From NCBI GenBank assembly GCA_963827165.1, contig CAWGZR010000005.1:512001-576000 (forward strand): a stretch of 64,000 nucleotides of DNA, written 5' to 3'. The translations under genes and the position numbers were made by a program. Origin of the DNA: Candidatus Bathyarchaeota archaeon (GTDB taxonomy: Archaea; Thermoproteota; Bathyarchaeia; Bathyarchaeales; Bathycorpusculaceae). Shown piece after piece: positions 14,477-19,564 of this stretch. Below the pieces are notes generated by a model. That model was given only the letters and a program-made list of their open reading frames with translations, was not told the DNA's origin and ran no database searches. Position 1 is the stretch's first letter. Every line of letters starts with the position of its first letter.

Positions 14477-15516
14477 GGGTTGCATCCGCTTTCCCAATTT
14501 TTATTTTGCGCCACAAGCCTTGGCTTGCGAAAATGATAAGCGGGTAAGACACAATCCATATTATCGAGTAAAGCGGTCCGTAATAGAAGTGGAACATCTG
14601 CACCTGGTTTGATTCTACACCGTACTGCATGCCGATGTTGAAAATGGTAACAATTCTTAGTACATTTATGAAGTATGTGACGACTACGCCAACCGCAAAG
14701 TACCCCACTTTAGCCTTCCATGAGATATGTATCTGCTGAAGAAACACTATAAACTACCGCTGTGAAAATCAGGAAGCTTTCGATGCCAGCGCAGGGCCAA
14801 GCGATCGAGAATTTAGCGGTTCCCAGTGGCCCTGTGGCTTGAAGGGTTGGCATCCCACTCACTGTGGTCATGGAAGTGACGCATCCCATCCAATTCAGGG
14901 TTTTAGCGGCAAGTGTAGCCGTTGTCGGAACCAATATTTGGAAGGGTGTAAACTCGCCGTAGGGAAAAACGTTGTCGATAGTGTAAATTACTCCTACTAA
15001 TGCGGCGAATATTCCCGGCAAAGCAAGATCTGACAAGCCTTTTCTCCCGAAATAGAACAGTGCGATTGCGCAAAAGAGAGCTGAAAAAACCAAGTACTCA
15101 ATCGACAACGGCATAGTATCATAGAATGCGACTCCGCTATGCAAAGACCAGTTTGCTATGGCGCCGTTTAACCCAACATAGTACTCGGAAACTACGTAGA
15201 CAGTGGGAAGCAGTAACGCCAAGGCCAAAGCTGCGAGCTTTCCTGCACTTTGTCTGTTTATTTTTGGTTTGAAGGTATCCCAGTTGAGGATGAACTCTAG
15301 CGCCACGAGCCAGACGAAGAAAAGTTGGAACGTTCTGCCTTTCCACATTAACTGAAAAGACGCTTGAGGAGTGACTTGAAGGTACGGATCAGCGGGGTTA
15401 AGGATGAAAAGCAAAGCCATCGGGACAGCGAAAGCAATCAATGGTAAAAGCTTTACAATGGCGTCTGAGTTAGTTTCTTTTGGAAAACTCTGCATGGCTG
15501 CATCCTGCATGTACAT
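14439..15516 (-). CDS. Exosortase/archaeosortase-family protein (apparent +1 frameshift at about 14748-14753)
   Basis: ORF 14710-15546 holds WKGR and the Cys motif WPCAGIES. ORF 14439-14747 holds N..R (INVLRI) and His (FHFYYG). Together they give the Cys/Arg/His set in a multi-TM protein. Confidence 0.8.
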
Positions 15517-15699
15517 AACGTTAAAAACATTCAGTTTAAAAAACAATGTGCCTTCCTCCCAAAGTTCAGACTATCAAACAAACAATGCAGAAACCAATCG
15601 GAGTCGTCGCTGTCGTTTGATTCATCCGGCGACTCATATTTTTGGCCGAAAGGCGAAAAAGTATAAGAATGCGTATGTTCCTTCTATGCAAAGCTGGTA

Positions 15700-15984
15700 G
15701 TGAAGAACGTGAACGTTCCTAAAGAAGTCAAGACTTACTGTCCCAAATGCAAAATTCATCAAATTCACAGTGTAACACTTTACAAAGCTGGAAAGCGTAG
15801 AGCTCTGGCTCACGGTGAACGAGCACACGCAAGAGAAAAAGAAGGTTATGGCGGGCAAAAATATGCGCTTCAAAGAGAATTCGCCAAAACAACCAAGAAA
15901 CAAACCCTGCGCCTCAAGTGCAAAGTTTGCAATTACATGAGGCATAAAGACGGTATTCGTCTGAGAAAATTAAATATACAGTAA
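15700..15984 (+). CDS. rpl44e: 50S ribosomal protein L44e (eL42)
   Basis: TYCPKC, GYGGQK and AKTTKK motifs. The start may be GTG 15709. Confidence 0.95.
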   Translation: MKNVNVPKEVKTYCPKCKIHQIHSVTLYKAGKRRALAHGERAHAREKEGYGGQKYALQREFAKTTKKQTLRLKCKVCNYMRHKDGIRLRKLNIQ

Positions 15985-16005
15985 TTTGTGGAGAGAAAAA
16001 AAGTC

Positions 16006-16203
16006 ATGTCTGAATGGAGTAAACTTATCCCAAAACCGCGAAGCGTCTTCCTCAGAGTTAAATGCTCAAAATGCGGAAATGAACAGTTGGTTTTCAGCAA
16101 CGCTGTTAACAAAATCACCTGCAACGTGTGTGGAGAAACGCTTGCTGAGCCCACTGGCGGACGAGCAAAGATTAATGGTGACGTGCAAGCCGTTCTCGAG
16201 TAA
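16006..16203 (+). CDS. rps27e: 30S ribosomal protein S27e
   Basis: PRSVFLRVKCSKCGNEQ...CNVCGETLAEPTGG. Confidence 0.95.
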   Translation: MSEWSKLIPKPRSVFLRVKCSKCGNEQLVFSNAVNKITCNVCGETLAEPTGGRAKINGDVQAVLE

Positions 16204-16218
16204 GGGATGACGAAATTA

Positions 16219-16377
16219 ATGGCTGAGCGTAAGCCCGAGTGGCCTAAAGCCGGCGACCCGCTTATCGGAATGGTAAAGACAGTCACGGATTATGGCGCCT
16301 GCGCTCAAGTCTACGAATACACTCAACGCGGGATACTTCGTGCCTCAGGGCAAGGCACTTTTAGAAGGGAAAAATAA
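16219..16377 (+). pseudogene. eif2a: Internally deleted remnant of translation initiation factor aIF2-alpha
   Basis: Manual translation gives MAERKPEWPKAGDPLIGMVKTVTDYGACAQVYEYTQRGILRASGQGTFRREK*. This is the start of an S1 domain joined to an aIF2-alpha-like tail, in the eif2a slot between rps27e and nop10. Confidence 0.78.
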
Positions 16378-16545
16378 TTGGTCTGGCAACTTCGCAAATG
16401 CGTAAACTGCAGCAAATACACTTTGAAAAAAACCAGTTGCCCCTATTGTGGTGGACCTGTTAGGATTCCGCATCCAGCCAAGTTTTCCCCCGATGATAAA
16501 TACCTGAAGTATCGTATGGCAATGAAAAGGAGCAAAGATGCATGA
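16378..16545 (+). CDS. nop10: H/ACA RNP protein Nop10
   Basis: Manual translation from TTG gives MVWQLRKCVNCSKYTLKKTSCPYCGGPVRIPHPAKFSPDDKYLKYR... Confidence 0.93.
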   Translation: MVWQLRKCVNCSKYTLKKTSCPYCGGPVRIPHPAKFSPDDKYLKYRMAMKRSKDA

Positions 16546-17312
16546 AAGAAACTTACCTTAAGCAGTTTGCTGAGATTCACCCGAACAATCCGATTCTTAT
16601 TGAAGGCCTCCCCGGACTTGGGCTAGTGGGCAAAATCGCATTGCGTTACATGATTAAACAGCTAAGACCCCAAAAAGTAGCTTACCTCTACTCACCCCAT
16701 TTCCCATATTTCGTCTTAGTCAACAAGAAAGGAAATGTTCGCCTCCTAAGGGGCGTATTTTATTACTACAAAAACCCCAACGGAAACGACTTAATCCTTT
16801 TCACGGGCGACAGCCAATCCCAAACAATCGAAGGACAGTACGAAATCGCCGATCAAATCCTCAACTTCTCAGAAAAACACAACGTAAAAACAATCGCGAC
16901 AATCGGTGGCTACCGAATGGAACCCACAGAAAAACCCAAAGTCTTCATCGCGGCAACATCGCAAGAAATCCTTGATAAAGCCATCAACGCAGGTGCAACA
17001 CTTAGCACCTCAGGAAGCCCCATCGTTGGAACAGCAGGATTGATACTTGGCCTAGCAAAATTCAAAAAAATAGATGCCCTTTGCTTATTGGGCGAGACAC
17101 GTGGCTACCTTCCCGACCCGCTTTCGGCAAAAAGTGTACTTGAAGTTTTAAAATCTACGTTTAACTTCGACTTAGACCTTAAAGGATTAGACGAGGAAAT
17201 TGCTCGGGCAGAAACAATGGTTAACCGGCTCCAGCAGATAGAAGAGAAACGTGCCCTTGAAGCTGAACAAACAAGAAAAGAAGACGACAAAAAAACAACC
17301 TACATTTCCTAA
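16542..17312 (+). CDS. PAC2-family proteasome assembly chaperone
   Basis: IEGLPGLGLVGK, LGETRGY.PDP motifs, and conserved position after nop10. Confidence 0.9.
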   Translation: MKETYLKQFAEIHPNNPILIEGLPGLGLVGKIALRYMIKQLRPQKVAYLYSPHFPYFVLVNKKGNVRLLRGVFYYYKNPNGNDLILFTGDSQSQTIEGQYEIADQILNFSEKHNVKTIATIGGYRMEPTEKPKVFIAATSQEILDKAINAGATLSTSGSPIVGTAGLILGLAKFKKIDALCLLGETRGYLPDPLSAKSVLEVLKSTFNFDLDLKGLDEEIARAETMVNRLQQIEEKRALEAEQTRKEDDKKTTYIS

Positions 17313-17527
17313 ATCAAAAATTTCCTAGATATATCCGCGGTTTTTTGGGTTGTCGTCCCTCCGCTGAAAGGTGAAAACATGGGGGGAACTGAATTTTGGG
17401 CATTGGATAAAGGCAAAGGAATTTGGGCGTTTTTTAGAGCTCTGATCAATTACGCGATCTTTGATTATTTCAGGTTTTGTGCCGGCAACAGCTAAGACTG
17501 GCCGTCATTGCATCTTACGGCGTGCGC

Positions 17528-19564
17528 CTATGTTTTCTTCAGGCATCCTTCCCTTGGCTCATAGATCGTTCCTTCACGGAGCAATTGGCTTATCATCCGT
17601 TCAACTTCGCCCCTGGGAATCTTGCTCTTCGTTTCCAGCTCGTTTACAAGGGCTTCTTTCTCAACAATGCCTGTCACCTTCTCCATGTTCATAAGAGTCG
17701 ATAGCACAATGGAGAGTCTGTCACGGATGCTTTTAGGTCTGCCAGTCATTATCAAGTCAATATCCATCTTGTACGAGGACAAGTCGATCCCGACTTCTTC
17801 TAAAGACTTCTTCATTATAGCGATAGCTGCCCCTGCATCTTCAGCAGTTACTTCCCGACGCAGAGCTACCTTTGCCCGGGCTTCCGAGATACGAACAAGC
17901 GACTCAAGCTGGCGAGCAGTAATTGCCACTGGTGAGCCTTCGGTTTCGCTTGCCGAACGCATGGCTAAGTAAAAGTCGCTAAGCTGCTTTAACGCCTCTT
18001 CGGAAAGCACAGGTTTGATACCCTTCGCGTAACTGACGTACTTGCGCAGCAACTCCGCATCAACCTGAGCCTCAACGGGGCTCACTCCCCTACGATGAAT
18101 CTCCAAAATGTGCTTGGACATTCTGCTATCAGATTCCTTGTTAGGAACGTCGCGAAGCACGAAAATCAAGTCAAAACGCGAAAGAATAGTTACGGGCAAC
18201 GGAACGTTTTCAGCTACGGTACGATTTGGTTCATACCTGCCCAACGACGGGTTAGCAGCTGCCAATACAGCGGTCCGCGCGTTTAAGGTGGCGACGATGC
18301 CACCTTTCGCAACCGAAACCGTATGCTGCTCCATAGCCTCGTGGATGGCGACACGATCTTCAGGACGCATTTTGTCCATTTCGTCAATGCAGGCTATTCC
18401 TTTGTCGGCGAGCACCAAGGCTCCTGCCTCCAAACTCATGCTTCCGCCTTTCTCCCGCACGACAGCGGCCGTCAAGCCCGCGGCTGTTGTTCCTCTTCCA
18501 GAAGTGTATAGTCCACGGGGCGCTATTCTGGCTACGTATTGGAGAAGCTGCGATTTGGCGGTTCCAGGGTCTCCGATTAGCAGGATGTTGGGTTCTCCCC
18601 TTATGCTTACGTCAGGTAGAGTTTTAGACACCCCGCCAAAGAGCAAATACATTATTGCTTCTTTGATGTGTTCGTAGCCGAAAATTGAGGGTGCTATTGA
18701 ATCCCTGATTTTCCTGTGCACCCACGGGTCTTTCGACAAGGCGAGAATTTTTTCTTCCTCTTCAGGAGTCGGTGGAGAAGTTTCAGGTTCTTTGCCGAGC
18801 AATTCGACGGAGTTAGCGTCGAGTTGAAGGATAAAAGTTCGAAGTTTTCCCATTCCCATGAGCGAAGGCGCGAAAGCATGCACTATGCCGACTATGGAAA
18901 CGTGGTCTCCTGGTCTGGCAACATCGACGATATCGTCACCTATAGTTTTGACAGCTAGTGTCCGTGGTAGTTGTCCAGGAGGAAGGTCTTCGGGTTTTTC
19001 TTGAAGTCGCAGGTCTTGTGAGTCTATGAATGTTGAGTCTTCTTGTGCGAATTCGAAGGGGCCATCTCTTCCACAGTCTGGCGCCTCGCAGACGGATGGC
19101 GCTTTAAGAAATTGCCCTGTTTGCTCTACCCTATTCATGGTTCCGCAGCGTTTGCATTTGAATGCTCCTACAAGAACCATGGGTCTGACAGGCGTAGCTC
19201 GCACAACTATGCCTTCAACCATGACGAGCTTAGACATTTGTCTTGAGCCGAGTTTTCTAAGCTGTTCCTTGCCCAGAAGCTGCACGATTCTTATGACGAT
19301 TTTCTCTATTTTTTCAGCGTGCTCAGAATCTTCAATTCGCAGCTGTTCATAAGCGCCTTTTCCCGCATGTTGGAGATACTCTTCAGGTCTATTAAGCACC
19401 TGTTCCGCGAGCGCTTGGTCGAACCCGTAGAGTTCTTCAAAATCGATCATTATCGAGTTTTTCCCAGTGATTGCTAACTGAGCGATTCTCTGACGGTACT
19501 TATCCCTCTTGAAAAACTCTTGAAAACGCTGCTGCGGATCCACAGTCAACTGCTCATTAGCCAT
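17528..19564 (-). CDS. mcm: Replicative helicase MCM
   Basis: GDPGTAKSQ, IDEMDKM, arginine finger SRFD and a Zn finger. No intein. Confidence 0.97.
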   Translation of the reverse strand: MANEQLTVDPQQRFQEFFKRDKYRQRIAQLAITGKNSIMIDFEELYGFDQALAEQVLNRPEEYLQHAGKGAYEQLRIEDSEHAEKIEKIVIRIVQLLGKEQLRKLGSRQMSKLVMVEGIVVRATPVRPMVLVGAFKCKRCGTMNRVEQTGQFLKAPSVCEAPDCGRDGPFEFAQEDSTFIDSQDLRLQEKPEDLPPGQLPRTLAVKTIGDDIVDVARPGDHVSIVGIVHAFAPSLMGMGKLRTFILQLDANSVELLGKEPETSPPTPEEEEKILALSKDPWVHRKIRDSIAPSIFGYEHIKEAIMYLLFGGVSKTLPDVSIRGEPNILLIGDPGTAKSQLLQYVARIAPRGLYTSGRGTTAAGLTAAVVREKGGSMSLEAGALVLADKGIACIDEMDKMRPEDRVAIHEAMEQHTVSVAKGGIVATLNARTAVLAAANPSLGRYEPNRTVAENVPLPVTILSRFDLIFVLRDVPNKESDSRMSKHILEIHRRGVSPVEAQVDAELLRKYVSYAKGIKPVLSEEALKQLSDFYLAMRSASETEGSPVAITARQLESLVRISEARAKVALRREVTAEDAGAAIAIMKKSLEEVGIDLSSYKMDIDLIMTGRPKSIRDRLSIVLSTLMNMEKVTGIVEKEALVNELETKSKIPRGEVERMISQLLREGTIYEPREGCLKKT

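Follow-up and report, generated by a model that had tools for sequence, protein, structure and literature searches.

The aIF2-alpha slot of a ribosomal-protein operon

The window, that is, the whole stretch of 64,000 nucleotides that was analysed, belongs to a Candidatus Bathyarchaeota genome designated G000; the other genomes compared are numbered as Gnnn and the retrieved loci as Lnnn. On the forward strand of the window, the operon opens with rpl44e (15700..15984; Pfam Ribosomal_L44, E 1.6e-24) and continues with rps27e (16006..16203; Pfam Ribosomal_S27e, E 1.3e-21), a short open reading frame that we call the stub (16207..16377), nop10 (16378..16545; Pfam Nop10p, E 3.3e-24) and a PAC2-family gene (16542..17312; Pfam PAC2, E 1.4e-44), which overlaps the end of nop10 by 4 nt (ATGA). 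In G000, nop10 starts with TTG, and relatives carry ATG or GTG at this position.

The TAA stop of rps27e is followed by a 15-nt spacer that opens with GGGATGA. Counted from its first ATG at 16207, the stub contains 56 codons, and counted from the ATG at 16219, which corresponds to the ancestral aIF2-alpha start, it contains the 52 codons (16219-16377) that a first-pass annotation of this DNA had described between rps27e and nop10. Its TAA stop (16375-16377) abuts the nop10 TTG at 16378. The frame appears in an ORF listing with a minimum of 30 aa, the default minimum of 60 being too high for it. Within the stub, the head (16219..16347), now decaying, corresponds to the 43 codons with which the ancestral slot aIF2-alpha began, the N-terminal part of its S1 domain. 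At the deletion junction (16347..16348), 627 nt (209 codons) of aIF2-alpha are gone in frame, and the tail (16348..16377) comprises the final 9 aIF2-alpha codons and the stop, including a Shine-Dalgarno (SD)-like AGAAGG at 16363-16368.

The complete order rpl44e-rps27e-aIF2a-nop10-PAC2 is found in 11 of 13 loci from other families of the order, as would be expected of the conserved operon slot that had been proposed. The exceptions are the G027 locus, which begins inside aIF2a and shows only aIF2a-nop10-PAC2, and the G040 locus, which has no nop10.

Identity of the stub

In a BLASTP comparison with the intact aIF2-alpha of G000, stub residues 5-47 align with residues 1-43 at 47% identity (E 4e-12), and the final 14 stub residues correspond to residues 249-262. 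The stub was also aligned with the full-length slot copy of the sister species G003: 96 of 136 nt are identical in the head and 29 of 30 in the final 30 nt, and this alignment places the missing 627 nt between 16347 and 16348. Both results agree with the first-pass annotation, which had recognized an S1-like aIF2-alpha start joined to a tail abutting the nop10 TTG and had estimated an in-frame loss of about 200 codons. The residues that it had considered atypical turned out to be changes specific to G000 relative to the consensus of the compared sister stubs and full-length copies.

A Pfam search with the stub returned 0 families at E values up to 1, and a search of solved structures in the Protein Data Bank gave weak S1-type matches (bS1, E 0.003; aIF2-alpha, E 0.28). 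Because there is no profile match, the identification rests on synteny and on alignment to relatives: the stub stands in the orthologous position, and its sequence can be aligned. As a subunit, it lacks a profile-detectable S1 domain (OB-fold), and the EIF_2_alpha region, which comprises helical domain 2 and the gamma-binding alpha-beta domain 3, is deleted. Essential domains have been lost, the protein is under relaxed selection and a functional copy exists at another locus, so that the stub bears the marks of a pseudogene. Judged by these sequence features, the stub is an aIF2-alpha remnant by descent only and no longer a subunit. The 209 codons may have been lost in more than one step.

An intact second aIF2-alpha and its origin

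When the whole G000 assembly was searched with Pfam EIF_2_alpha, a single strong match was obtained (86.5 bits), located on contig C7. The gene at this place (L001:1141-1929) codes for a protein of 262 aa, in which PF00575 (S1, 43.1 bits) and PF07541 (EIF_2_alpha, 84.9 bits) both score above cut-off, and its product matches Pyrococcus aIF2-alpha (3aev_A) with an E value of 7e-54 over residues 6-260. Its dN/dS of 0.042 relative to G051 indicates strong purifying selection. With both domains, full length and purifying selection, the C7 copy has the properties of a functional aIF2-alpha, and aIF2 beta and gamma are present in G000 in one copy each. The first-pass annotation had suggested such a whole-assembly search for the three subunits and had left two outcomes side by side, namely, that the gene had relocated or that this lineage initiates translation without it. 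Relocation stands, in the form of replacement by a paralog on C7, and initiation without aIF2-alpha is refuted by the intact copy. Paralog replacement almost certainly accounts for the loss of the slot copy.

The C7 copy is not a contaminant, since sister genomes carry the slot locus and the second copy on one contig (for instance, G051 C1, G045 C11, G001 C3 and G056 C4) and since G000 groups with G051 and G064 both in the second-copy tree and in the tree of the flanking genes.

The relationship between the two copies was examined in a quick IQ-TREE protein tree of 89 aIF2-alpha sequences (45 second copies, 32 full slot copies and 12 from other families), from which the G069 slot pseudogene was excluded. 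All 45 second copies group together (SH-aLRT 100) on a stem of 0.39 substitutions per site, a length that could distort the rooting of the tree; the 32 slot copies form its sister clade (SH-aLRT 81), and the genus clade is separated from the 12 outgroup sequences with a support of 99. This topology fits a single duplication near the base of the sampled Bathyarchaeia genus, after which the copies were lost differentially. The length of the stem may reflect functional divergence of the initiation-factor subunit.

The second copy was counted in the first 61 genomes: 18 of them have both paralogs intact, 14 only the one in the slot, and one (G069) a second copy together with a slot pseudogene; the slot is reduced in the other 28. 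G003 (C1:2212089 and C1:1838436) and G014 (C1:455038 and C1:1078994) are examples of the 18, which include single-contig genomes. An intact second copy was found in 25 of the 28 reduced-slot genomes; G011, G067 and G021, in which it was not found, are 58%, 52% and 65% complete, respectively. The matches of two relatives of the second copy, L176 and L178, extend over 787 nt and 788 nt, not 786, and their E-values are much weaker than expected from their identity, which points to a frameshift in those records.

An ORF of 116 aa (L001:1929-2279, on C7 of G000) overlaps the stop of the second copy (ATGA). It directly follows the second copy in 32 of the 45 loci, the other 31 proteins being 57-81% identical to that of G000. 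Searches with this protein gave no Pfam family and, in the ESM Atlas, no usable match. It may be a partner of the second aIF2-alpha.

Slot states across the genus

The nop10 locus was compared in all 120 genomes of the genus, 61 in a first set and 59 in a later one. The interval between rps27e and nop10 holds a full open gene in 52 genomes, a full-length pseudogene in 2 and a stub of 59-300 nt in 66. The sister-genome comparison that the first-pass annotation had recommended extends the finding well beyond G000, and dN/dS over the stub head is 0.63 between G000 and G051. The pseudogenes of G069 (C1:666998-667780; L057), which is full length with 7 in-frame stops, and G104 (L223), which is full length with a longest ORF ending at nop10 of 85 codons, represent the stage before deletion.

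Deletion endpoints vary, with more than 10 types among the first 28 stubs. In a tree of the flanking DNA (four genes, 1410 columns), the full-slot genomes G003, G042 and G072 are nested among stub genomes with a support of 97, and the reduced state requires at least three changes. Since endpoints differ and full-slot genomes are nested among stubs, many of the deletions are independent; mutation cannot restore a gene once it has been deleted, and the nesting therefore points to several independent reductions followed by further trimming. G000 groups with G051 (258 nt) and G064 (299 nt), and because each of these two stubs retains sequence that the other has lost, neither deletion can be derived from the other. 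The stubs of G127 (228 nt) and G118 (226 nt) share a G000-type change in the head and look like a possible precursor state; G000 differs from G127 by another 54 nt, which is again a multiple of three.

A recognizable aIF2-alpha head persists in nearly all 66 stubs. In most of them (26 of the first 28), the ancestral start position is still occupied by a start codon, even where just 14-22 codons are left. The ancestral tail ending at the nop10 start is retained in all 66 except G084 and G094. In G084 (L226), unrelated sequence stands in place of the tail and contains GGAG some 12 nt ahead of the TTG, and 6 nt separate the end of the upstream ORF from the start codon; this genome looks like one that has re-solved nop10 initiation differently. 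Other irregular loci include G004 (L049), where the nop10 frame extends over 312 aa into PAC2, and G016 (L070) and G023 (L095), which gave only partial matches for rps27e and/or nop10. These anomalies could be real lesions or assembly indels.

Support for the deletion junction

Twenty public sequencing runs contain part of a 1.6-kb stretch around the locus, and the contigs (Logan) of four of them were compared in detail. Run X1 yields a 2259-nt contig that is colinear with the window over 15927-17300 and differs from it at two bases. A second study contributes run X2, with contigs over 15996-16330 and 16316-16491, the latter of which spans the junction, and a contig of run X5 extends over 15833-16313. 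The compared contigs showed neither indels nor joints, and 16347/16348 is bridged in both X1 and X2. X1 may be the source sample; X2 is independent.

The fourth run, X15, is an RNA library with possible DNA carry-over, and its contigs cover 16141-16348 and 16464-16626. As neither bridges the stub-nop10 junction, they are uninformative on a joint transcript, and their coverage is compatible with transcription of the stub, not proof of it. A C>T difference at 16344, synonymous in the stub frame, occurs in contigs of X1, X2 and X15 and represents a strain-level polymorphism.

These contigs bear on the suspicion that the stub is an artefact, either because some 600 bp collapsed during assembly or because the C7 copy is a contaminant and the organism truly has no aIF2-alpha. 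The assembly does consist of 14 contigs, with an estimated contamination of 3.9%. However, runs of two studies span the junction without indels, comparable stubs occur in 65 other species of the genus, stub and second copy share a contig in several sister genomes, and the phylogeny of the second copy agrees with that of the flanking genes. We consider an artefact extremely improbable.

Frame retention and peptide decay

In 50 of the 66 stubs, the reading frame that opens at the ancestral start runs uninterrupted to the ancestral stop. Related genomes are not independent. The stubs were grouped into 24 classes by length and sequence with a rough single linkage that tends to merge classes; on this basis, in-frame members are in the majority in 16 classes (binomial test against one-third, P 8.6e-4), at least one is present in 19, and 13 classes are in frame throughout (P 0.028). 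The one-third null is conservative because it leaves out the additional requirement that no stop intervene. The pattern was first noticed in the 61 genomes (22 of 28 stubs) and was repeated in the 59 later ones (29 of 38), and assembly errors in metagenome-assembled genomes could shift these frame counts either way. Counting any start-codon ORF that ends at the nop10 start gives 25 of 28 and 35 of 38, but this count was not used as a test since short open stretches often hold a start by chance.

The exceptions differ in kind. G004, G019 and G047 share a frameshift and G118 has one as well; in each of the four, another ATG opens an ORF of 45-47 codons in the tail frame. In G064, whose sister G096 is in frame, a 1-nt deletion lies close to the end of the stub, and in G063 the stop is lost. 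No start-codon ORF ends at the nop10 start in six stubs (G060, G063, G064, G081, G094 and G116). Several exceptions are single tips within in-frame classes, as would fit either mildly deleterious changes of recent origin or indel errors in the assemblies. Any benefit of the frame is thus not absolute, because 16 of the 66 stubs break the rule and six have no such ORF. For G000 alone, the chance of meeting no stop after 28 random substitutions is 0.28, which, multiplied by the one-third chance of an in-frame deletion, gives about 0.09, or once in eleven; by itself, the open frame of G000 is not significant.

The peptide has changed extensively. In the G000 head, 28 of 129 nt differ from the consensus of five copies (G051, G064, G003, G019 and G075), and the head dN/dS of 0.63, calculated between G000 and G051, compares with 0.02-0.09 among functional slot copies. 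Together with the independent contigs that bridge the junction, this relaxed ratio upholds the earlier reading of the stub as the product of decay and not of assembly collapse. Stub lengths range from 14 to about 94 codons across species, with about 6 residues in common at each end, and conservation falls to 40-60% at positions upstream of the last ~20 nt.

At the start of the slot aIF2-alpha gene, the opening codons (ATGGCTGAGCGTAAGCC, window 16219-16235) hardly vary in nucleotide sequence among the first 61 genomes, synonymous sites included; one of six possible Arg codons is used, and second copies have other codons at this place. A GGCT...AGCC hairpin seen by eye in this conserved part of the head was dropped as a candidate since relatives with GGCG, GGCA and GGAG show no covariation.

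The nop10 initiation region

Most positions of the last ~20 nt before nop10 are at least 90% conserved in stubs (25 of 28 scorable in register) and in full copies (16 of 32), and the tails of second copies vary at synonymous sites. The AGAAGG of the tail, 9 nt before the nop10 TTG, matches 5 of the 6 positions of the SD core AGGAGG, and is SD-like as judged from its sequence; the 3' end of the G000 16S rRNA is GGATCACCTCCT, with the core CCTCCT, whose complement is AGGAGG. Because of this conservation and this motif, the tail is best understood as the translation-initiation region of nop10 lying within the old end of the aIF2-alpha gene. The start of the stub is also preceded by an SD-like motif.

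Stub and nop10 are co-directional, with adjoining stop (TAA, 16375-16377) and start (TTG, 16378), an arrangement typical of coupled pairs that is the same in the first 61 genomes; in nearly all genomes of the genus, the stop abuts or overlaps the nop10 start. In the outgroup families, aIF2-alpha directly precedes nop10 in 12 of 13 loci, with a 1-nt overlap (TAATG) in 7 of the 12. Since these families show a related junction, the coupling layout is older than the duplication.

Experimental precedents for such coupling come from Haloferax volcanii and E. coli. Huber et al. 2019 (PMC6728339) report strict coupling in 13 of 14 pairs that they tested in these organisms and a variable contribution of SD-like motifs in the upstream 3' end. 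According to Huber et al. 2023 (PMC10666635), intergenic gaps of ~20 nt almost abolish coupling, and in E. coli the final 15 nt of the upstream gene are enough for it.

The predicted RNA fold of 16195-16420 is less stable than its shuffles (z +2.56), with the nop10 initiation region unpaired, and a search of 15000-18000 against Rfam at a permissive threshold gave no RNA family. A mechanism in which translation of the upstream frame would unmask a hidden nop10 ribosome-binding site is unsupported by so weak a fold and an unpaired start, and for the same reasons reinitiation is favoured over unmasking.

A candidate leader ORF and its alternatives

The remnant, the intact paralog, the genus-wide stub series, the in-frame bias and the conserved tail are observations, and from them we infer that the stub is translated and that nop10 expression may depend on it. 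According to the reading that we put forward, a duplication near the base of the genus would have placed a second aIF2-alpha at another locus. In the G000 lineage, this copy would have taken over, and the slot copy would have lost its 209 internal codons in frame. Once the slot copy was dispensable, deletions would have been tolerated only if ribosomes could still load at the old start and terminate at the old stop. What would be retained is the start with its SD-like motif, an open frame of 14 to ~94 codons, and the last ~20 nt with AGAAGG and the stop. Ribosomes terminating at the stub TAA would then reinitiate at the weak nop10 TTG, and selection would maintain the act of translating the stub while the peptide sequence drifts. 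In our estimation, the stub has probably been retained as a vestigial leader ORF through which nop10 is coupled by termination-reinitiation; the proposal of the first-pass annotation that it may persist to keep nop10 coupled gains comparative support from the 66 stub genomes.

Neutral decay offers a simpler account, in which the stub is a dying remnant with no role, the tail survives only because it holds the ribosome-binding site of nop10 and the open frame of G000 is due to chance. De novo initiation at nop10 may suffice, since the gene has its own SD-like AGAAGG in an unstructured, unpaired initiation region, and this is the main argument for such an account. It also draws on the once-in-eleven chance calculated for the G000 frame taken alone, on the relaxed selection on the peptide, on the loss of the strict in-frame arrangement in 16 of the 66 stubs and on the existence of the full-length pseudogenes of G069 and G104. 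The excess of in-frame stubs is difficult to reconcile with chance, both in genome counts and over the independent deletion classes, and it was repeated in genomes fetched after the hypothesis had been formed. Neutral decay would explain the survival of the head by supposing that deletions cannot run into rps27e, but deletions to within a few bases of the rps27e stop would then be expected too, and the start codon is kept at its ancestral position even in the shortest stubs of the first set. We regard neutral decay as a real but less probable possibility, and retention as a leader ORF as the best-supported reading.

A functional product is a third explanation for the open frame, start codon and upstream SD-like motif, for the RNA-run contig over the stub and for the weak S1-type similarity: the stub would encode, for instance, a mini S1-like RNA-binding peptide conserved for what it does. 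Forty-three residues are too few for the five-stranded S1 fold. The stub products vary from 14 to ~94 codons with only some six residues shared at each end, dN/dS over the head is 0.63 and there is no Pfam match, so a conserved micro-protein appears very improbable.

Returning to the leader-ORF reading, we see an about even chance that its fullest form holds, in which a copy of an essential gene has been repeatedly trimmed, down to a 14-codon ORF, and is held open purely to deliver ribosomes to nop10, in a genus with two diverged isoforms of the factor, the second of which is perhaps specialised. The long stem of the second isoform and its conserved 116-aa neighbour gene are hints of a specialised initiation-factor variant.

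Implications

The duplication of a core initiation-factor subunit in a species-rich Bathyarchaeia genus of soil and peat, with subsequent differential loss of the copies, has practical consequences, as pipelines for annotation and sets of marker genes that count on the operon copy will score these genomes wrongly. Gene callers miss ORFs as short as the stubs, which may control the expression of a component of the H/ACA RNP. The stubs would provide rare natural evidence that upstream translation, and not its product, can be under selection, and they would indicate how little of an upstream gene is required. If the reading is true, evolution has produced in the 66 natural stubs a series of deletions by which the minimal termination-reinitiation element of an uncultured archaeon is defined.

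Comparison with known systems

Gene duplication with replacement, pseudogene erosion and termination-reinitiation are each already known. A literature search, at the level of result overviews, returned nothing on aIF2-alpha paralogs in Bathyarchaeia or Bathyarchaeota and nothing on an eroded essential gene or pseudogene remnant retained as a coupling leader ORF.

In comparison with the canonical aIF2-alpha operon gene, the stub is alike in slot, neighbours, start region and last 30 nt. It differs in that 209 of 261 codons are gone, including most of S1 and all of domains 2 and 3, and in that the factor is supplied by a diverged paralog elsewhere. The junction with nop10 is the same as in the 52 full-slot genomes of the genus, whereas other families mostly have the 1-nt TAATG overlap. 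Duplicate replacement with pseudogene erosion provides a second parallel, sharing duplication, differential loss and relaxed dN/dS, and all of its stages can be seen in the genus, from genomes with two intact copies through full-length pseudogenes and long stubs to a stub of 14 codons. Plain erosion, however, does not predict that the stubs stop at a defined minimal unit and stay in frame.

In short leader ORFs and synthetic bicistronic designs, a translated ORF carries the SD of the downstream gene and stops at the downstream start, and its peptide is irrelevant. The layout of the stub is alike, but it is natural, derives from a degraded essential gene and lies in a ribosomal-protein operon of an uncultured archaeon. 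Stub and nop10 resemble the overlapping or abutting coupled pairs of Huber et al. (PMC6728339, PMC10666635) in that they are co-directional, with a stop-start distance of 0 nt (a 1-nt overlap in relatives) and a motif of SD-like sequence in the upstream end. Here, however, the upstream partner is a vestige and not a working gene, so that coupling could not serve to balance subunits. Only a short 3' piece of the upstream gene would be needed, as in the truncations down to 15 nt of PMC10666635; the series was produced here by evolution, in 66 species, and not at the bench.
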